25,633 nucleotides of DNA from a virus (taxonomy: Duplodnaviria > Caudoviricetes), in IMG/VR virus record IMGVR_UViG_3300045998_000057, positions 1 to 25,633 of that record; one strand, 5' to 3'. Position numbers and translations under genes: made by a program. Below the pieces are notes generated by a model, which saw only the letters and a program-made list of their open reading frames with translations, made no database searches and was not told the DNA's origin. This document shows positions 16,350 through 25,632 of this stretch, piece after piece (the first letter of the stretch is position 1; each line of letters opens with the position of its first letter).

Positions 16350-16940
16350 TCAGGTCGTCAGGTAGTTGGGGATGGTATGGCTGTGGATGACGGTGTAGAC
16401 GCTCGTGCCGGCGTGCGTGATCTTGAGGAAGCCCGACACGTCGCAGTCGTACAGGTAGAGGCCATTGGCGATCGAGGCCGCCAGGGTCCCGATGCCGCCG
16501 GCGGCGTCGGCGGGCGCGATCGAGGTCGCGGTCGTGCCGGTCACGAGGATGCCGTGCAGGACGCCCGAGCTGCCCATGACGTAGGCATCGGCGGCCTGCC
16601 CGACGATGATCGTGTCGTTGCCGGTGTTGATGACCCAGCCGGCACCGGTGACGCTGGTCAGGCTCTTGAAGATCGCGGAGCCGCTGCCGCCGACGCCGTC
16701 GGTCAGGGTGATGACCTCGGTGAGCGGAGCTCCGGCGAGGTCGGTCCCGACGACGGTGAGGGTGCCCGCGGTGTCATTGCCGGTCACGGGCGTGATGGTC
16801 GCCGTGACCTTGAAGCCTGCGCCGTGCGCCGCGGTCGTGTTCGCCAGGGTGTAGGCGCCGACCTTCATGTTGGTGCTGGTGACGAACCGGTTGGTGACGG
16901 CCGCCGTCGTGGCCGAGAGCGCGGTGCGGGTGAAGCCCAT
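16350..16940 (-). CDS. putative head decoration/structural protein (196 aa)
   Basis: Thr/Gly-rich beta-type composition; second gene after the capsid gene; TGATG overlap. Confidence 0.65.
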   Translation of the reverse strand: MGFTRTALSATTAAVTNRFVTSTNMKVGAYTLANTTAAHGAGFKVTATITPVTGNDTAGTLTVVGTDLAGAPLTEVITLTDGVGGSGSAIFKSLTSVTGAGWVINTGNDTIIVGQAADAYVMGSSGVLHGILVTGTTATSIAPADAAGGIGTLAASIANGLYLYDCDVSGFLKITHAGTSVYTVIHSHTIPNYLTT

Positions 16941-17161
16941 CAGACGCCTCGCTTCTCGCCGGGGCCGGCCGTGGCCTGCTCGACGACCGGACCGCTCGAG
17001 CGCAGCCGGACCGGGCCGAAGAGCTCGGACCAGCGACGCACCACGGGATCGTCGGCCGGGAACAGGTCGCCGCGGACGATGTTGATCTCGGTCTTGCCGA
17101 GGCGCCCGGTGAATGACTCGAGCGCCACCATGACCTGCGGATCTGCTGCCGCCCTTGCCAT
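16940..17161 (-). CDS. 73-aa post-capsid protein
   Basis: GGAGG RBS before MARAAADPQ...; ends in VEQATAGPGEKR, a tail often seen on genes following capsid genes. Confidence 0.75.
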   Translation of the reverse strand: MARAAADPQVMVALESFTGRLGKTEINIVRGDLFPADDPVVRRWSELFGPVRLRSSGPVVEQATAGPGEKRGV

Positions 17162-17217: not shown

Positions 17218-19521
17218 TTACTGGACCTTGAGCTGGCGGCCGGCGTCCGCGTTGACCACGCGGGCGGTGTTGCGCCAGAAGGCGTAGATGCCGATCTCGC
17301 CGGTCGGGAAGGACGGCGTGGCGCCGTTGAGCATGTCGGGGATGACCTTGATGCTCATGCCCACCCGGTCGAGGATCAGGTAGCGGGACGGGTCGAACAG
17401 GACGCCGTTGATCGTGGCGTCGGTCGTCGGCGTCCACGGGATGGACGGCGCCTCCCACAGCGGGTAGCCGATGAGGGTGAGTCCGGTGTTGGAGTTGACC
17501 GGATCCGGCCGGCCGAAGCGGCCGACGTTGGGGTAGCCGACCCCGTTGAACAGCTGGCCGTACGCCGTCTCCCAGCCCTGGGCGGCCCGGATGCCCTTGC
17601 GGGTCATCATCCAGATCGCGTTAGCCCGGTAACGGAGCGGCAGCCCGGCCTCCACGAGGAACAGGTCGCCGACCGCGGTCGTGTCGTTGGTGGCCGTGGT
17701 CACCGCGGTGAAGGCCCCGTCGAGGGCGACGCCCTGCGGGTAGACCGTGGTGCCGACGCCCACGGCGAACTGGTTCTCCTCGAGGTTGTCCTTGGCCTCC
17801 TGGAACAGCCCGGCGAGGTCGGAGTCGAGGCCCGGGCGGTCCTGCGCCATCTCGTAGCTGACGGTGACGAACGCGTGCGCCCGCTTGGCGATGAACTCCG
17901 GCCGGGCGAACGTCGGGCCCTGCTCCGTGGCCGCGGCGGCCTCGAGGGCATAGGCCGCGGTGATCGCCGTGGCGGTGAGCACCTGATAGGTGTCCGTGCC
18001 GACGATGGTCTCGACGCGGCAGACCTGCCGGAAGGGGTTGAGGGTCGTGTGCGCGCCGATGGCGAGCACGGTGGGGTCGAAGGCGTACGGGACGGCGTAG
18101 CCGCCGGTGCCGTCGACACCGACCGCGAGCGCTGTGCCGCGCTCCGCGCCGCCGGTGCGGACGTAGCGCGCGAAGTCGCGCCGGTACTGGGGGCTGCCGG
18201 TGGTGATGATCCGGCGGGCGAACTCCTTGTCCTCGGTGTCGCGGTAGTCGAGGAAGGTGGTCAGGCCGCTGCGGAAGCCGTCCTGGTCGGCGGACGGGTG
18301 CGGGCTCACCACCTGCTCCACGGCGCGCATCGCGTTGTCGCGGAGCTTCTGGTCGCGCTGCTCGCGGGTCGAGCTGCTGCGCTCGATCGCGGTCAGGTCG
18401 TAGATGTCGGCCTCGGACGGCCGGCGGATGACGGCCGGTGCGGCGCCGACGCGGACCTGGGTGGCCGCGTCCTGGCGGGCCGCCTCGTCGACGAGGCGCT
18501 GCTGCCGCTCGTCCCAGGCATTGATGTCGGCCTTGAGCCGGTCGAGCTCGGCGGTCTGGTTGTCCCAACGAGCCTGCGCCTCGTCGGGCAGGACGCCGGG
18601 GTACTCGACCGCGAGCGCCGCGAGGGCATCGCGGAGCTCGGTGACTCGCGCGGCCTTCTCGTCACGGGTGACGTATTCCACGGTTGATGTCTCCTTGTGG
18701 TCTGGCTTGCTGGGCGGCACCGGCTCGTCGCGGCGCTCCGGCTCGAGGTGCGGCGCATCGGCCGCGGCGTCGAGGGAGGGTGCTACCGGCGGGGTGGGGA
18801 TGGGGCGCATCTCGTCGGTCATCGACCGCAGAGACGCGGACGCCTGCGCATAGGCAGGCCAGGTGACGGGGCCGAGCTCGAACAGCCGGGCCTCGCTGAT
18901 GGTGCGTTCGGGGAGCTTGTTGGGGTTGTGCGGGCCGCCAACCGGGCGGTCTTCCCACTTCTCGCGGATCACGCTGAACCGGTGAGAGGCACCATAGACG
19001 CCCTTGCGGAGGCCGTCGACCACGAGCTCGGGGAGCCCGTCGAGGATGCGACCACGGGCGAATGGGCTCGTCTCGTCCTCGCCGACCTCGTCGGTGGTGG
19101 CGATCGGCTTCTCGCCGATGGCCGGGTCCTTGCCATGCTGGAACAGGATCTTGGGCGGGTGCTCGGCCATCGTCTTGCGGTAGGCCGTCCGGGTGAACCG
19201 CTCGAGGAAGTGGCCCTCGCTCTGGGACTGGATCTCCGCCCATTGGTCGTGCGGCGCGAGCCGGATGGTCAGGGTCTTGCCGTCCTCGGACGTGATCCCG
19301 CCCTGCATCGCTCGGTACAGGTCATCGCGTGGAGCGTGGTGGATCGGGTCATCGGTCATGGGCGGATCCTCCGTGGAACGCGGCTCGTTCGCATACAGCG
19401 CGGCGAGTTGGGCCTTGGCTTTCTCCTTGTCGGGGTGGCAGCCGACGACCTTGCCATCGGCGTCCTTGACGACGGCCACGCCGGAGCACTCCGGGTTGTC
19501 AGTCTCCAGGTGCCACGGCAT
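17218..19521 (-). CDS. HK97-type prohead protease - major capsid protein fusion
   Basis: Protease motifs ILFQHGKD, GASHRFSV and LFELGPVTWPAY; coiled-coil delta domain; capsid motifs TGGYAVP, NPFRQVC, GEIGIYAFWR. ATG at 19521 has a GGAG RBS. Confidence 0.93.
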   Translation of the reverse strand: MPWHLETDNPECSGVAVVKDADGKVVGCHPDKEKAKAQLAALYANEPRSTEDPPMTDDPIHHAPRDDLYRAMQGGITSEDGKTLTIRLAPHDQWAEIQSQSEGHFLERFTRTAYRKTMAEHPPKILFQHGKDPAIGEKPIATTDEVGEDETSPFARGRILDGLPELVVDGLRKGVYGASHRFSVIREKWEDRPVGGPHNPNKLPERTISEARLFELGPVTWPAYAQASASLRSMTDEMRPIPTPPVAPSLDAAADAPHLEPERRDEPVPPSKPDHKETSTVEYVTRDEKAARVTELRDALAALAVEYPGVLPDEAQARWDNQTAELDRLKADINAWDERQQRLVDEAARQDAATQVRVGAAPAVIRRPSEADIYDLTAIERSSSTREQRDQKLRDNAMRAVEQVVSPHPSADQDGFRSGLTTFLDYRDTEDKEFARRIITTGSPQYRRDFARYVRTGGAERGTALAVGVDGTGGYAVPYAFDPTVLAIGAHTTLNPFRQVCRVETIVGTDTYQVLTATAITAAYALEAAAATEQGPTFARPEFIAKRAHAFVTVSYEMAQDRPGLDSDLAGLFQEAKDNLEENQFAVGVGTTVYPQGVALDGAFTAVTTATNDTTAVGDLFLVEAGLPLRYRANAIWMMTRKGIRAAQGWETAYGQLFNGVGYPNVGRFGRPDPVNSNTGLTLIGYPLWEAPSIPWTPTTDATINGVLFDPSRYLILDRVGMSIKVIPDMLNGATPSFPTGEIGIYAFWRNTARVVNADAGRQLKVQ

Positions 19522-19693
19522 CGTCGTCTCCATCAATCACGGCAGAGCGGTGATTTAGAAAGTCTGCCCATTCGGAGAATGTGGGGTCCTCCGGCCCGAT
19601 CTCGACCATGCCATCGCCAATCAGTCCATTCGGGCCCTCGGCCCTGAATGGCACGAGTAGACGACCATTCGGCAGCACTTGTGCGGTGGTCAT
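19499..19693 (-). CDS. 64-aa acidic protein coupled to the portal-peptidase (candidate immunity/inhibitor)
   Basis: ATGA overlap with the portal stop; MTTAQVLPNGRLLVPFRAEGPNGLIGDGMVEIGPEDPTFSEW...; shares the atypical codon usage of the peptidase domain. Confidence 0.65.
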   Translation of the reverse strand: MTTAQVLPNGRLLVPFRAEGPNGLIGDGMVEIGPEDPTFSEWADFLNHRSAVIDGDDDAVAPGD

Positions 19694-21789
19694 TTGTCGT
19701 TCCTGATCGCGAAGATCTTCATCCAATCGTCTACCTGAGAGGAGATCGCGGTTCCATAGGTCTTGGCTACTGCGGAATTACCCCACTTGACGTGGATGGC
19801 GAACACCTCGGCCCACATCTCCTGGGCCCCCGCGTTGCCTGGTTGCCGGAAATAAGGCGACACCCCGGGTCTACTCTTCGCCATTTCCCATGCCGTCGAC
19901 CATTCGATGCTCGATGAGATGCCGCCGTAGTGATCCATCGCATGTCCCAGCTCGTGGAGCATGAGGCTGGTCGAGCCGTGTGCGCTCGTGTCCCCGGCAA
20001 ACACGAGGTTGGCATCGGGATCGAACACCCCCGGCACATCCTTCCATGTGGACTCGGCAGACCATCCACGCGGCTTCCCCTTAAGCCCCAACTTGGAGGA
20101 CGGAGCAGCGCTGATTGCGATCTTCCCGCCGCCGTCGACAAACGTCCGTAAAACTCCCGGCGGCACATCACCCAGATCGCGGAGGTGACGCACGACCTTT
20201 GGATCATCCCCGTTCTCCACCGTTAGCGAAGAACCGAGGATCTTGATCGCCTGCCGCGTTCCGAGAGACACATACGGCACGTCAGTGGTCGTCGCCGTGT
20301 TTCCCTTCGGGTGACCACCCTCAGACTTCTTGCCGCCTGACCAGGCACCGTAGTAGTGGTCATCCTCGTCGGTTGCACGGTCATCGAAAGGGTCGTCCGA
20401 TGCACCCCGTTTCGGTGCGGCGTTCTTGTCGGTCGTGACGTCCGCTGGGTTGATCGGCACCGATGACGGCCCGCCCTTGGCGAGCGCGCCATTGGGGATC
20501 TGGTCGGACGGGACGCCCTCCGGCATCGGCGGGCGGAGCTGGACGCTGTAGAGGTTGGTGTGCTCGAGGCGCGACAGGTCGCCAGACTTGATCGCCTCGA
20601 TGACGGATGCCGGGACGAAGCCGGCGTCGACGTACTGGCGGATCGCGCTGGCGTGCTGGGCCTGGACGGCCGCGGCGTCGCTGATGTCGTCCTTGAGCGC
20701 CGGGATGTCCTGGTCGTTGTACCACAGCTGGGCGCCGTTCTCGGCGGGGACGAGCTTGGCGAGCGAGCCGGCGGCGTTGCGCCACCTCGGGCGCATCGTG
20801 AGGTCCGCGAACCGCCGCATGCTGGCGGCGAAGTTGCCGGCGTTGAGGCTCGATCCCGACAGGCCCTCGGAGAAGCCGGCCACCACCGGCGGCACGCCGG
20901 CCGCCGCGGCGATGCGCGTCTCGCCGGCGCCCTGCGTGGCCTTGAACTCGAGCTGCTGGAGGTCCTTGCCCACGACCTGCGCCTGCGCGCCGGCGCCGAG
21001 GTACATCGTCTTGTAGGCGTTGGACACGCCGCCGTACTTGTCGTCGAACTTCTCGATCCACTCCTTCCACGCGGTGCCGGTGATCGCCGGGTCGAGCGAG
21101 ACGATCATGTTGGGCGTGGCGCCGTTCTCGAAGAAGCGCAGCTTGTGCTCCGTGGCGGCGAAGTCCGCCGACACCTCGCGGGCGAGGACGCGCAGCCAGC
21201 CCACCCCCCGGAAGGGGGCCAGCGGGTCCGGCGTCGGCATGTAGTGCGCCACCTGCGACCACTGGAACGGCTCGGCCTCGAGGCCCGAGTTGCGCCCGCC
21301 GGGGTGGTAGATGATGCCGATCGGCACGGCGCGCGAGGTCCGGTTGTCGGCGCCGAGGACGATGGTGACCCAGTCCGGCCGCGGCTGGAACAGGGTGCTC
21401 TCGTCGAGGCGCACGACGAAGGCGTTGCCGGCGAGATCCTCCTGCTGGCTCATCCGGCCCAGCAGGTCGCCGGTCGTGCCGCCCGGCCACGGCCTCGTCA
21501 GGAGGTCGAGGGCCGGCTTGCTGAACAGGTCCCCGGGCCGCCCGTTGCGGATCTGCCGGTAGAGGAACGTGGCCTCGGAGAACAGCGACATCCGCGCCTG
21601 GACGCAGGCGTAGACGATGGGGTTCTCGAGGTACGCCTGCGACAGCCCGCCGTAGCTCGTCTCGATCTCGAGCTGCTTGCCGCCCGGCAGCGTCTGCGGG
21701 AGGTTGTACAGGGGATAGGTGAGGCCGTTGAAGTTGACGGTCTCGCGCGGGCCCGATGGCCAGAGCATCGAACGGAGCAAATTGGTCAC
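19690..21789 (-). CDS. HK97-family portal protein fused to C-terminal HExxH zinc metallopeptidase
   Basis: Residues ~1-420 are portal (NPIVYACV, LAGNAF, RFFENGATP, IAAAAGVPPVVAG). After a linker come LMLHELGHAMD and QEMWAEVFA. Confidence 0.92.
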   Translation of the reverse strand: MTNLLRSMLWPSGPRETVNFNGLTYPLYNLPQTLPGGKQLEIETSYGGLSQAYLENPIVYACVQARMSLFSEATFLYRQIRNGRPGDLFSKPALDLLTRPWPGGTTGDLLGRMSQQEDLAGNAFVVRLDESTLFQPRPDWVTIVLGADNRTSRAVPIGIIYHPGGRNSGLEAEPFQWSQVAHYMPTPDPLAPFRGVGWLRVLAREVSADFAATEHKLRFFENGATPNMIVSLDPAITGTAWKEWIEKFDDKYGGVSNAYKTMYLGAGAQAQVVGKDLQQLEFKATQGAGETRIAAAAGVPPVVAGFSEGLSGSSLNAGNFAASMRRFADLTMRPRWRNAAGSLAKLVPAENGAQLWYNDQDIPALKDDISDAAAVQAQHASAIRQYVDAGFVPASVIEAIKSGDLSRLEHTNLYSVQLRPPMPEGVPSDQIPNGALAKGGPSSVPINPADVTTDKNAAPKRGASDDPFDDRATDEDDHYYGAWSGGKKSEGGHPKGNTATTTDVPYVSLGTRQAIKILGSSLTVENGDDPKVVRHLRDLGDVPPGVLRTFVDGGGKIAISAAPSSKLGLKGKPRGWSAESTWKDVPGVFDPDANLVFAGDTSAHGSTSLMLHELGHAMDHYGGISSSIEWSTAWEMAKSRPGVSPYFRQPGNAGAQEMWAEVFAIHVKWGNSAVAKTYGTAISSQVDDWMKIFAIRNDK

Positions 21790-21944
21790 TTGTCCACCTC
21801 GATGCCGAGCAGGCCGGCGGCGGCGAGCGCGAGGCCCGCGAGGATGATGGCGGCGGGGAGATAGACGAGCGCCACGCCCGCCACGACGAGCGTGCAGCCG
21901 AGGGCCACCAGCGCGAGCGCCTGTCGTCTACGGGTCAGCGCCAT
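21786..21944 (-). CDS. 52-aa two-TM membrane protein
   Basis: Hand translation MALTRRRQALALVALGCTLVVAGVALVYLPAAIILAGLALAAAGLLGIEVDK; GTGA overlap with the portal start. Confidence 0.8.
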   Translation of the reverse strand: MALTRRRQALALVALGCTLVVAGVALVYLPAAIILAGLALAAAGLLGIEVDK

Positions 21945-23536
21945 GCGATCAGTACCTCGGAAGGGGCGGGTTGTTCAGGCATCGTCAATGCCGCCTCATG
22001 GGCTAGGACATCGGCCACCGCGCCGTCAATGCGCCGCCGGTCATCGCCTTTGATGAGCACGTACTTGGTGCGTCCGTCGGCCTCGTCCTCGGCCGCCCGG
22101 ACCTTGCGAAGATGGGCGGCCTTGACGTGCTCTGCCGTCAGCGGGTCGCCGTCGTGCGTGTGCGTCCCCTCGCGCAGGGCCGTCAGCCATCGGTCAACGG
22201 CCGGCGCGAACCGACTGGGTTGGTTGGTGTCAAGCGCGACCACGATGGCCTCTCCGTAGGCTGCGGCCCACGCCTCAACTTCTGATCGCCAGAACGGCGG
22301 GTCGCAGTACATCCGCCCGACTGAATAGTGCTCGAACGCCCACGCGACTCGCTCGTTGACCTCGATGCGGTTGACGGACCAGTCGAGCGGAGCCCCGGGC
22401 GGACGCTGCCACGATCCGACAATGAAGCCGTAGCCGTCGGCGGTGCAGCCGCGGAGAAATGTGGCGTCATGGCTGATGGAGCCATCGAAGCCGAGCGCGA
22501 TGTATGCCCCATCGGGGACGTCGCGGGGCTTTGCCAGCGCATCCCATAGTCGCGGGTCGACAGCCCGACCGCTGCCCGCGCTGCGGATGTTGAAGTAGTA
22601 GCGGAGCGTGTCGTCCCAGCTGGTGGCCGGGTCGCGGATCTCAGCGATCAGCCGGCGGCGGTCGATCCACCAGGCGTCACCGTAGGCTTCATCAAGGCTC
22701 GCGATGAGCCGCTCGTCCGTCCAGTCGGGATCAGGATCGACCGCCGGTCGTCGCGCGTAAAGCATCACGCCGGGATCGAGCCCGGTCTGCTCGGCGACGG
22801 ATTTCTCGCCCAGCGTCGGCGCATTGGTCGTTTCCATCGTCCGGCCGCCCATCTTGGCGGCATTGCGCCGGAGCGTGCCCGCCAGCCGCACCCCGCCATT
22901 GCGTCGGAGCCAGAGGTGCGTCTCGTCAAGGACCGCGAACGTCACCCGCTGGCCCTCGCGGCTGCCAGCTGAGGCTGTGACCGGCTCGAGAACGCCGGGC
23001 TTGCCGCGCAGGTAGAGCCGCGTTCGTCCGTCGTCGATCCCGAGCTCCCGGGCCGCCCGGTGGTCGTTGGCGACGAGCATCTCGTACAGCGCGTGGTAGG
23101 TGTTGTCGGTCTGATCTTCGGACACGGCGGCAATCTGGACCCACGGGTTGTGCCACGCCCGCCCTACCGGCTGGTGGTATTCGTCCCAGTGATCGAACAG
23201 GACCGGCCCGGCGAACTCGGCCAGTGCGATGGCCGCGGCGAGCGGGGATTTACCCCAACCCTTCGCCATTTCCATCGCGCCGCGGCGGTGGAGAAACTCG
23301 CCGGTATCCCGATCGACGGCGTACCAGCGCAGCACGAGCCACGCCTGCTCATCGGTCAGGATCAGCGGCTTGGTCTGGTCGACCGGGCTCGGCAGATAGC
23401 GCGCCATCCATTCGAGGACGCCCCAGCCGAGCGTCGGACCGACAAACCGACCGGGAGTCGACGATCGAACGGGAACGTTCTTAACTGGTCTGCGGCGGGT
23501 GGTCGGTTGTGCTTCGGCGACCAAGCTATCCGTCAT
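21935..23536 (-). CDS. terL: terminase large subunit
   Basis: Walker A MAKGWGKS, Walker B FAVLDETH, nuclease motifs LGFDGSISHDAT and RIDGAVA. Start position uncertain. Confidence 0.95.
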   Translation of the reverse strand: MTDSLVAEAQPTTRRRPVKNVPVRSSTPGRFVGPTLGWGVLEWMARYLPSPVDQTKPLILTDEQAWLVLRWYAVDRDTGEFLHRRGAMEMAKGWGKSPLAAAIALAEFAGPVLFDHWDEYHQPVGRAWHNPWVQIAAVSEDQTDNTYHALYEMLVANDHRAARELGIDDGRTRLYLRGKPGVLEPVTASAGSREGQRVTFAVLDETHLWLRRNGGVRLAGTLRRNAAKMGGRTMETTNAPTLGEKSVAEQTGLDPGVMLYARRPAVDPDPDWTDERLIASLDEAYGDAWWIDRRRLIAEIRDPATSWDDTLRYYFNIRSAGSGRAVDPRLWDALAKPRDVPDGAYIALGFDGSISHDATFLRGCTADGYGFIVGSWQRPPGAPLDWSVNRIEVNERVAWAFEHYSVGRMYCDPPFWRSEVEAWAAAYGEAIVVALDTNQPSRFAPAVDRWLTALREGTHTHDGDPLTAEHVKAAHLRKVRAAEDEADGRTKYVLIKGDDRRRIDGAVADVLAHEAALTMPEQPAPSEVLIAWR

Positions 23537-24014
23537 TGATGACACGCAGGTGCCCGTAATGGCCCGGGCCATTGTCGACAGCCGCCGGCGCCGCTTGCTC
23601 GGCCCCTGTGATCCTGATGCCGAGCCGCTGCCTGGCGGTTGGTGTCAAGCCGAACTCGTTCTCCAGGCGCAGGATGACGCCCTCGAGCTTCATCACGTGA
23701 TCGGCGAGCGGGTTGGTGCGGATCTGCCCCGTCGAGCCCTTGACGACGAGGGCCATGCGGACCACGTCCATCGAGCGCGCGTGCTGGTCGTAGAGGTCGA
23801 ACAGGCGCCGGATCGCCGGAGCGTCCACATCGAGGACGACGCGCGCCATGTCGCTGGCCCAGTACGCCTCCCACGCTGCGACCGTGACCGGCAGCCAGGA
23901 CTCGTGCGGCTTGCGCCCGACCAGCGGGGTAGACGGCGGGACGGATTGCGGCTTGCGCTTGCGATGCCCCATGATCGCGTCCGCGGGCTTGGGCATCGGC
24001 CCTCTACTACCCAT
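23526..24014 (-). CDS. terS: terminase small subunit (P27-family-like)
   Basis: MGSRGPMPKP...GSTGQIRTNPL...EFGLTPTARQRL; GGAG RBS before ATG 24014. Confidence 0.92.
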   Translation of the reverse strand: MGSRGPMPKPADAIMGHRKRKPQSVPPSTPLVGRKPHESWLPVTVAAWEAYWASDMARVVLDVDAPAIRRLFDLYDQHARSMDVVRMALVVKGSTGQIRTNPLADHVMKLEGVILRLENEFGLTPTARQRLGIRITGAEQAAPAAVDNGPGHYGHLRVINDG

Positions 24015-24062: not shown

Positions 24063-25316
24063 TCACGGCAGCCGCTCCGACGTACGGCCGGTGAAGTCCT
24101 CCCACCGCTTGATCGCCACAGCGACGTAGCGCGGGTCGAGCTCCATCGCAAAGCAGCGGCGTCCGAGTTGCTCGGCCGCGATGATGGTCGAGCCGGAGCC
24201 GGAGAAGGGATCCACGATGACCTCGGAGGCACGCGAGGAGTTACGGATCGGAACTTGCAGCAGTTCGACTGGCTTCTGGGTCGGATGCTGGTAGTCTCGC
24301 CCGGACTCACTGGCCACGTGCAGCGTGGATACCTGGGAGCGGTCGCCGTACCAGTTGGCCGGCTGTCCTTTCTGCGCCCCGTAGAGCATCGGCTCGTGTT
24401 GATGCTTGTAGTGGGCGAAGTTGAATCCGGGCCTGGATTTCACCCACACCAACTCAGCCCTCGGCTCGAGACCGGCGGCGTCGTAGGCGGCGAAGACCTC
24501 TGGCGCGCGAAGGCTGGCGAAGCAGCAATAGACCGGCGCCCCGTGGTCGAGATGCGCGATGTTGGTCACTAGGAAGCGCGTCCAGAAGGCGGTCAGCGCT
24601 TCACCTACCAACTCGTCATCCGCGATGGCGTCGAACCTCGGCTTCAGCGCTCCGGCCCGCTTCCTGGCGAGTTTCTCCGGCCCCCACGCACCAGAGCCGG
24701 TATCGCGGTAGGCCACCCCATAGGGCGGGTCGGTTACCATGGCTGCCGCCCTCTGGCCGTCCATCAGCCGAGCGACGTCCTCGGCCTTCGTCGAGTCACC
24801 GCACATCAGCCGGTGGTCGCCGAGCGCGAACAGGTCGCCAAGGTGAACGTTCGACTCGTCGCCCAGCGGCGGCGCGTCGTCGGGGTCCGTGAGCCCCACG
24901 GTTCCCTTCAGCGGCGCGAGGTCGGCCAGCAGCGTCGTCAGACCCGCGTCGTCGACGGCGATCCCGCTCAGCAACTCGTGGAGCCGCTCGTCGTCACGGG
25001 TCGCCATGGCGCCGATGGGATCGAGCACGGCGAGAACAAGCGCCTCCTCCTCGGGTTCGAGGTCAACGTAGAGCACCGGGACGGTAGGTTCGCCGCGAGA
25101 CAGCGCTTCCTCTATGCGCGCGTGGCCGTCGATGACGTACCCCGTGCGGCGATTGACCATGACCTGCTGGACCCACCCGACCTCACCGAGCGAACCACGC
25201 AATGCGTTGCGCTGGCCGGCCGGATGCGTGCGCCAGTTGGCCGGGTTGGCGACCAGCTGGTCGGGCGCCTCCTCGCCGGTGCCAATGATGCGGTTGCGCC
25301 AAGCTGCGGCGGTCAT
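24063..25316 (-). CDS. ParB-like domain - N6/N4 DNA methyltransferase (beta class) fusion
   Basis: N-terminal LVANPANWRTHP...VIDGHAR; then GDHRLMCGDS, TDPPY, HPTQKPVEL and DPFSGSGST. GGAG RBS before ATG 25316. Confidence 0.92.
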   Translation of the reverse strand: MTAAAWRNRIIGTGEEAPDQLVANPANWRTHPAGQRNALRGSLGEVGWVQQVMVNRRTGYVIDGHARIEEALSRGEPTVPVLYVDLEPEEEALVLAVLDPIGAMATRDDERLHELLSGIAVDDAGLTTLLADLAPLKGTVGLTDPDDAPPLGDESNVHLGDLFALGDHRLMCGDSTKAEDVARLMDGQRAAAMVTDPPYGVAYRDTGSGAWGPEKLARKRAGALKPRFDAIADDELVGEALTAFWTRFLVTNIAHLDHGAPVYCCFASLRAPEVFAAYDAAGLEPRAELVWVKSRPGFNFAHYKHQHEPMLYGAQKGQPANWYGDRSQVSTLHVASESGRDYQHPTQKPVELLQVPIRNSSRASEVIVDPFSGSGSTIIAAEQLGRRCFAMELDPRYVAVAIKRWEDFTGRTSERLP

Positions 25317-25425
25317 TGCGGGGTCTCCAAAAGGCGGGAGAACTCGGGCACATTGCGAGAGATCGGGCAGCGGGGTCCGTAGCCCCTCTGAGCACCCGTA
25401 GGCACCCCTCCCCCCTGTCTGCCCT
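25317..25425. other. putative cos/packaging-site region
   Basis: Non-coding gap right after the HNH gene containing GGGGGGAGGGG (minus strand, ~25415-25405); typical position for HK97-like cos phages. Confidence 0.5.
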
Positions 25426-25632
25426 CTATCGCGCGGCTCGATGTCTCGTTGATCCGAGCGAACCGTGACACGAGGGACACAGCGTCCGGTACCCCCACGT
25501 CGGATCGCCAGCGACGAGATGATCGAGGTGCAGTGGTGGGGCGTCAGTACCGCACCCCTCGCAAACGTCCCCCAGGTAGAGACGACGGTCCCGCTCATGC
25601 GCTGCGCCGTAGCCACGTTGTCGGCGCCCCTC
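25426..25632 (-). CDS. terminase-associated HNH endonuclease (gp74-like), 5'-partial
   Basis: Not in the ORF track; hand translation ...RRQRGYGAAHERDRRLYLGDVCEGCG...LHLDHLVAGDPTWGYRTLCPSCHGSLGSTRHRAAR*. Confidence 0.85.
   Translation of the reverse strand, partial: EGRRQRGYGAAHERDRRLYLGDVCEGCGTDAPPLHLDHLVAGDPTWGYRTLCPSCHGSLGSTRHRAAR

Follow-up and report, generated by a model that had tools for sequence, protein, structure and literature searches.

Can a phage portal serve directly as the carrier of an enzyme that is loaded into the head? This question is raised by a 25,633-base phage contig, hereafter called the window, which is the entire IMG/VR record IMGVR_UViG_3300045998_000057. On its minus strand, a terminase gene, a 52-amino acid (aa) open reading frame (ORF), a 699-aa ORF (21789–19690) and a fusion of prohead protease and capsid protein follow one another. 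Within this head module (terminase, portal fusion, protease-capsid) the 699-aa ORF encodes the only portal of the window and, in frame with it, a zinc peptidase; a 64-aa ORF starts at its end. A preliminary description proposed a portal-borne cassette of effector and immunity protein. Its observation is confirmed here and its interpretation is partly supported, with delivery, toxicity and neutralisation as predictions. We lean towards a head-loaded effector and its inhibitor, which would derive from a cassette fusing a zinc peptidase of the Pro-Pro endopeptidase (PPEP) type to the portal tail and adding a conserved partner gene.

A zinc peptidase in frame with the portal

As described before, portal, linker and peptidase form one reading frame. 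The 699-aa ORF contains no internal stop codon, and Pfam assigns it a portal domain (PF04860, residues 57–376) and an ATLF domain (PF07737, residues 542–665, 31.4 bits against a cutoff of 27.4). A match to the portal model TIGR01537 stayed below its cutoff. The motifs lie where they had been placed, with HELGH at residues 612–616, PRGW from residue 573, Y646 and QEMWAE from residue 656. H612, E613, H616, Y646 and E657 are invariant in all 35 rows of our alignment.

The best sequence match in the PDB is PPEP-1 (E 1e-5). An AlphaFold2 model predicted from the 35-row alignment has a predicted local distance difference test score (pLDDT) of 94, while an earlier model from a two-sequence alignment had reached 39. 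Among 48,161 chains the model matches PPEP-2 with a Z score of 18.1 (root mean square deviation 2.4 Å over 167 residues), followed by PPEP-3 (Z 17.8) and lethal factor (Z 13.7); unrelated zincins score 5.1 or less. By profile score, catalytic residues and predicted fold, the window domain is an ATLF zincin, and the earlier assignment to the ATLF/PPEP-1 family is upheld. It is, however, not a PPEP by membership, because it carries no signal peptide and is placed outside the 11-row PPEP-like clade (support 100/99, in a tree without any solved PPEP). The residues of the PPEP S1 and S1' pockets, as listed for PPEP-3 (PMC12828418), are all kept: P573, W576, W582, V585, H604, L609 and H612.

A MuF domain, the usual carrier of phage toxins according to the preliminary description, had been reported missing. 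Indeed, neither Pfam nor PHROG gave a MuF match in the 699-aa protein, linker included, or elsewhere in the window, and a MuF profile built here had a best E of 3.4 in the six frames of the window. This profile recovered three carriers outside its training set, plus duplicates of training rows.

With a profile of the peptidase, 427 clusters were found at E ≤1e-30 and 2,277 at 1e-10, PPEPs included (1.84 billion searched). Single-sequence viral scans with the peptidase or with P0002 (introduced below), a search for stand-alone peptidase homologues and the A4 genome scan were empty, and matches in the ESM Atlas were all <0.9.

Two further matches are recorded separately. Residues 30–158 of PDB entry 23wm_A ('PP507', 1552 aa) match the peptidase profile with E 1e-7. 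The left-end 'peptidase' of several mycobacteriophages, exemplified by gp3 of Iwokeuplikedis (PHROG 4415; L048:1328-2149), is a distant relative. In Iwokeuplikedis its gene is preceded by a DUF4417 gene, and the 72-aa ORF that follows is unrelated and gave no match with the partner profile.

The portal tail as an inserted cassette

The window portal was compared with 27 related viral portals of 39–54% identity. Three of them are truncated, 23 stop 18–45 aa beyond the matched region, and the remaining one (L012) is extended by a tail of 93 aa. None of the 27 carries the peptidase, and none, with the three truncated ones counted, carries any other enzyme cargo; no polymorphism in enzyme cargo was thus seen at the C-termini of these close portal homologues. 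In the cultured phages Shagrat, Madraxi and Eyre, which are relatives, the portals measure 471–504 aa and the protease gene comes immediately next. They are phages of actinobacteria, and since their portals share 41–46% identity with that of the window, the host of the window phage is not fixed.

The G+C content is 59–62% at positions 19501–20500 compared with about 70% in the flanks. At third codon positions (GC3) it drops from about 99% in the portal to about 70% past codon 432 (log-likelihood gain of about 53), and it is 61% in the small ORF. Because of this break at codon 432 and the absence of the tail from all 27 close portals, the tail is a recent insertion, and together with the small ORF it makes up a foreign cassette of about 1 kb. 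A search for repeats or a target-site duplication at the cassette edges gave only short pairs, which are likely due to chance.

The same architecture is found in P0002, a 657-aa protein present on three contigs from a separate source. Its portal is distant (27% identity over one 115-aa block) and its peptidase is the same (53% identity); in the tree the two peptidases group together with support of 99/95. Since one peptidase lineage thus sits on two distant portals, there were either two separate fusion events or a transfer from one portal to another. In a search of 5.8 billion entries, which was of limited sensitivity, portal-peptidase fusions amounted to two proteins.

Some further features of portals and linkers were noticed. 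The tail that extends the L012 portal by 93 aa (L012:4760-5042) resembles, by eye, a small protein encoded after the window capsid gene (16940–17110), and the translation of a related portal (L027:2140-4245), also read by eye, suggests an intein insertion that includes an endonuclease region. The linkers of the window (20300–20400) and of P0002 (residues 425–445) both show R-A, a His-containing stretch and glycines right before the cargo, which may be a shared short motif.

A conserved partner gene

The 64-aa ORF starts at the ATG at 19693 and overlaps the portal stop codon (ATGA), in accordance with the preliminary description. At its other end it overlaps the likely MPWH start of the protease-capsid gene (19521) by 23 nucleotides. 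It belongs to no Pfam, PHROG or NCBIfam family. A Pfam search with 45 partner sequences gave a best E of 0.11, and hence no SuFu-type immunity protein, and the partner profile had a best E of 0.52 against PDB sequences. A single-sequence viral scan and a search of phage records with the partner were also empty. Relatives first surfaced beside peptidase matches, namely p47 of Myxococcus phage Mx4, L030 and a fused form in L033.

In a scan that started from the peptidase, all 30 viral pattern matches were true peptidases, which form 24 clusters at 70% identity. The partner lies directly downstream in 22 of these 30 loci (20 separate, 2 fused) and in 18 of the 24 clusters, a count that includes three seed contigs and relies on a partner profile iterated on these matches. 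No partner match occurred in reversed sequences or in 30 plain-portal loci. Among the 150 best peptidase relatives, 18 have the partner fused to the peptidase (reversed control 0); by eye, 16 of these 18 have His where separate partners have Asp.

Scans were also started from the partner. In bacterial genomes, 40 of 42 pattern matches were true partners, and 16 of the 40 stand behind a peptidase. In viruses, 3 of 12 pattern matches were true, all behind a peptidase, and the other nine were dropped before counting. One of three plasmid partners stands behind a peptidase, in an unannotated DcrB-PAAR-ATLF locus. L060 and L085, which are no partners, and L044–L046, with other or marginal peptidases, were left out of the counts. 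Bacterial-type partners frequently end in PP[FWY] (35/41) or a strict PPxP (24/41), while a PP tail is present in only 2 of 22 phage-type partners. Taken together, these comparisons support a real coupling of partner and peptidase, as had been supposed.

Three loci deserve separate mention. In NZ_CP080245.1, an unlisted PAAR-ATLF gene (L049:1893-2936) lies between DcrB and the partner; this partner is annotated from a lipoprotein-like start that extends into the peptidase gene and was probably set too far upstream. At L088:1468-2304 the peptidase follows a hydrophobic N-terminus, which by eye is like a Flp pilin leader, and a lipoprotein-like partner comes next. In a Solibacter genome a phage-type partner stands alone between resolvase and integrase (L054:2386-2580).

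One peptidase on many carriers

The peptidase is C-terminal in 122 of the 150 relatives. Its phage carriers comprise MuF proteins (9 of 21 scanned), VG15, a tape measure protein and a capsid-protease polyprotein. One of the nine, L116, unites portal, MuF and peptidase within a single ORF. Bacterial carriers are peptidoglycan-binding proteins of Myxococcota and PAAR proteins. Among 39 of the 150 relatives, chosen by length or domain position, we found VgrG (4), the core of an extracellular contractile injection system (eCIS; 1), DUF1353 (6), MuF (2) and no portal. One domain that ends many delivery proteins and is then followed by one small gene shows the pattern of a polymorphic effector or toxin with an immunity or inhibitor protein.

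Other arrangements of the domain were seen as well. Head proteins without a partner combine MuF, peptidase and topoisomerase IB (L115:2157-4619), MuF, ADP-ribosyltransferase and peptidase (L109:1362-3647) or peptidase followed by ADP-ribosyltransferase (L028:3891-6851). Peptidase and fused partner are part of long ORFs at L110:2316-7046 and L127:1356-5666, the former of which runs on into an S78 protease and a capsid domain. The same peptidase also ends a tape-measure-like protein without a partner (L134:3147-6362).

Features of the locus

The features discussed here are collected in Table 1. No integrase was found among the 25 ORFs scanned in this partial contig of 25.6 kb. Further genes are a DNA methyltransferase with a ParB-like N-terminal part (24063–25616) and an ERF annealing protein (1–693).

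Table 1. Features of the portal-peptidase locus and its neighbours in the window.
Feature	Position	Strand	Evidence
HK97-type portal part, residues 1–432	20494..21789	-	Pfam PF04860, E 6e-31; PHROG 12; identity to 27 viral portals; GC3
Low-complexity linker of about 75 aa (residues 433–506), start of the inserted DNA, without MuF	20272..20493	-	GC3 changepoint; composition and MuF test; no PHROG match
ATLF/PPEP-type zincin domain, residues 507–699	19690..20271	-	Pfam PF07737 above cutoff; AlphaFold2 model; fold matches
S-loop from P573-R574-G-W576 to W582, matching PPEP proline-pocket residues	20044..20073	-	PPEP-1 alignment; alignment columns; pocket residues from PMC12828418
HELGH zinc motif (H612, E613, H616)	19942..19956	-	Sequence; invariant in alignment
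Oxyanion Y646 to third zinc ligand E657	19819..19854	-	Invariant in alignment; roles by analogy with PPEP-1 Y178 and E185
64-aa partner gene of unnamed family, core RAEGPxGxIGD, no signal peptide, predicted inhibitor	19499..19693	-	Leave-one-out profile E 3.5e-17; GC3
Prohead protease (S78) fused to major capsid protein; candidate linker-cleaving enzyme	17218..19536	-	Pfam PF04586 and PF05065
Terminase large subunit	21935..23572	-	PHROG 9, E 1e-62

Proposed mechanism and alternative explanations

The C-terminus of a portal faces the head interior, and portals remain in the particle and are not ejected. Assembly would thus load up to 12 peptidases inside the head via the portal tail. Since the portal is retained, release of the domain would require cleavage in the linker, for which the S78 prohead protease encoded next to it is the most likely enzyme. 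The peptidase would then accompany the DNA into the cell, where its targets would be proteins of the host and the cleaved bonds likely of the proline-proline type. In the producing cell it would be held in check by binding of the partner, whose gene is translationally coupled, possibly via a conserved G-[D/H] hairpin of the partner. A delivered enzyme with its own inhibitor is likely because the same pair also occurs on further head proteins of phages and on injection systems of bacteria. Self-release at Pro-Pro (LRPPMP at residues 418–423 of the window protein, ANPPEP in P0002) was considered and rejected as a general mechanism, since PPxP occurs in 0 of 27 phage linkers (1.6 expected by shuffling) and plain portals already end in QPPG.

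Several observations weigh against a head-loaded effector with its inhibitor. No release site was identified in the linker. The partner is absent from 6 of the 24 viral peptidase clusters, and 24 of the 40 bacterial partners have no neighbouring peptidase (three of these are short of upstream DNA), so that a refuting condition named in the preliminary description, a small ORF commonly present without an effector domain, applies in part. Such orphan partners have a hydrophobic N-terminus in 13 of 24 cases compared with 0 of 16 paired ones, in rows that are not independent, and no peptidase lies within 2.5 kb of L054, the nearest relative of the window partner (51%). The frequent fusion of partner and peptidase would be as compatible with a regulatory domain as with an immunity protein against a lethal toxin. 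On the side of the enzyme, the 11 PPEP-like rows of Firmicutes type in the structural alignment may bias the model and its ranking towards PPEP. Moreover, residues of the S2 edge strand are changed, with F589/D590 and Q656 in place of G117/G118 and E184 of PPEP-1; R574 is kept. Pro-Pro specificity of the window peptidase is likely from its sequence, and the differences in the edge strand and at E184 make it uncertain.

Alternatively, the peptidase could act in the producing cell or the prohead, in late anti-defence or in processing of head proteins, and never be delivered; the partner would then be a regulator, cofactor or substrate. The retention of portals in the particle fits this explanation, and fusion of the partner in 18 relatives and in L033, L110 and L127 would suit a regulator or substrate. 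In addition, the tails of bacterial-type partners are similar to PPEP substrates (PMC8610288), and zincins of phage polyvalent proteins were proposed to be processing enzymes (PMC5512222). We nevertheless consider an undelivered enzyme rather unlikely. The phage already has an S78 protease, all 27 close relatives lack the domain, and its place at the C-terminus of VgrG, PAAR and eCIS-core proteins is that of an effector, while the scarcity of PP tails in phage-type partners speaks against a substrate. Particle maturation is the weaker of the two roles suggested in the preliminary description, the other being delivery. It is improbable, too, that the cassette is a mere hitch-hiker in a tolerant, disordered portal tail, with no portal-specific function and with its domain trimmed and destroyed at maturation. 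A recent and rare insertion, a partner whose stop codon reads into the next gene and the attachment of other small domains to the portal tail (L012) would all agree with it. In contrast, the same peptidase lineage is fused in frame to two distant portals, and all catalytic residues are preserved, along with an intact coupled partner. Finally, an assembly chimera or a lost stop codon could have joined two separate genes. The window fusion is known from a single contig with a sharp compositional break, and no contig bridging the junction was found in the part (about 37%) of the contigs of one sequencing run that was examined, which is no evidence either way. The architecture of P0002, on three contigs from another source, and the portal-MuF-peptidase ORF of L116 make such an artefact highly improbable.

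Beyond the effector and inhibitor proposed for the window, a more general and still tentative picture can be drawn, which we hold to be possible rather than probable. Zinc peptidases cutting Pro-Pro bonds would form a widespread and so far undescribed effector-inhibitor system that reaches bacteria in phage heads, with 12 copies on each portal ring, on type VI spikes or through eCIS. An inhibitor family of about 60 aa would block PPEP-type active sites by an Asp/His hairpin and, in bacterial forms, additionally by a PVPPxP tail mimicking a substrate, and orphan secreted copies would act as stand-alone shields.

Comparison with known systems

The ATLF domain was listed on 31 MuF proteins by Jamet et al. 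2017 (PMC5576092, rows of Table S5; see also Table S7). According to these authors, metallopeptidases account for 20% of MuF toxins, and a small ORF follows 89% of them. These toxins share with the window protein the Pfam domain, the position in the head module by the portal, the C-terminal cargo and the small downstream ORF. They differ in the carrier, which is a dodecameric portal without MuF in the window, and the accessible part of the paper names no partner family and gives no ATLF experiment. Compared with the definition of MuF toxins, the window protein has no N-terminal MuF, but its C-terminal domain is shared with other carriers and a small ORF lies downstream. Iyer et al. 2017 (PMC5512222) and 2022 (PMC9503650) described fusions of PBECR, 2H, InPase, Nudix and ART domains to portals, for which they suggested packaging and injection; among the domains of phage polyvalent proteins there, zincins are the commonest. 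The window protein likewise joins an enzyme in frame to the only portal of its head module. A portal-zincin fusion or a partner gene was not found in the text of these two papers, supplementary lists aside.

Both ATLF domains on MuF proteins and effectors fused to portals have been published before, and given these precedents a portal as carrier varies a known theme and introduces no new principle. The earlier proposal that the portal itself is the carrier stands insofar as the carrier is direct and lacks MuF; its novelty was overstated (PMC5576092, PMC5512222, PMC9503650). A portal-ATLF fusion, the partner family and a retained Pro-Pro pocket were not found in print, in a search that stopped short of subscription papers and the supplements of Iyer 2017. 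PMC7824862 and PMC11806420 contain, in their accessible parts, nothing further on the ATLF domain.

PPEPs are the subject of PMC8610288 (the accessible text of which lacks the word phage), PMC12828418 and bioRxiv 2024.03.15.585006. With PPEP-1/Zmp1, PPEP-2 and PPEP-3 the window domain has in common the fold, the S-loop, the S1/S1' residues, HExxH, the oxyanion tyrosine and the third glutamate (PMC8610288, PMC12828418). In contrast to these secreted Firmicutes enzymes, which release their own adhesins, it has no signal peptide, lies outside their clade, has a different edge strand and is accompanied by a partner gene. Tox-ALF, a lethal-factor-like zincin predicted as a toxin domain on secretion carriers with delivery by Photorhabdus virulence cassettes (PVC) and type II secretion systems (T2SS), is paired with Imm-SuFu (Zhang et al. 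2012, PMC3482391), whereas the partner described here has no Pfam family. A cultured counterpart is p46-p47 of Myxococcus phage Mx4 (OK085710.1), where the same peptidase and partner follow the portal. There the carrier is a MuF protein, and both genes are annotated as hypothetical.

Biological implications

The portal carrier alone is modest news. It raises the question of how a cargo that is tied to a head-retained protein gets out. What opens the function to testing is the unnamed partner family, together with the variety of carriers and the retained Pro-Pro pocket. For the ATLF MuF toxins, listed in 2017, we found no report of an activity, a target or an immunity protein. As the locus points to a specific family of candidate partners, to Pro-Pro as a specificity that can be assayed and to Mx4 as a carrier in culture, the role of metallopeptidase cargos of phages becomes testable as well. 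If the proposed function is correct, a small inhibitor family would be added for this class of proteases, and PPEP-like chemistry would be extended from the release of adhesins in Firmicutes to the conflict between phages and bacteria.

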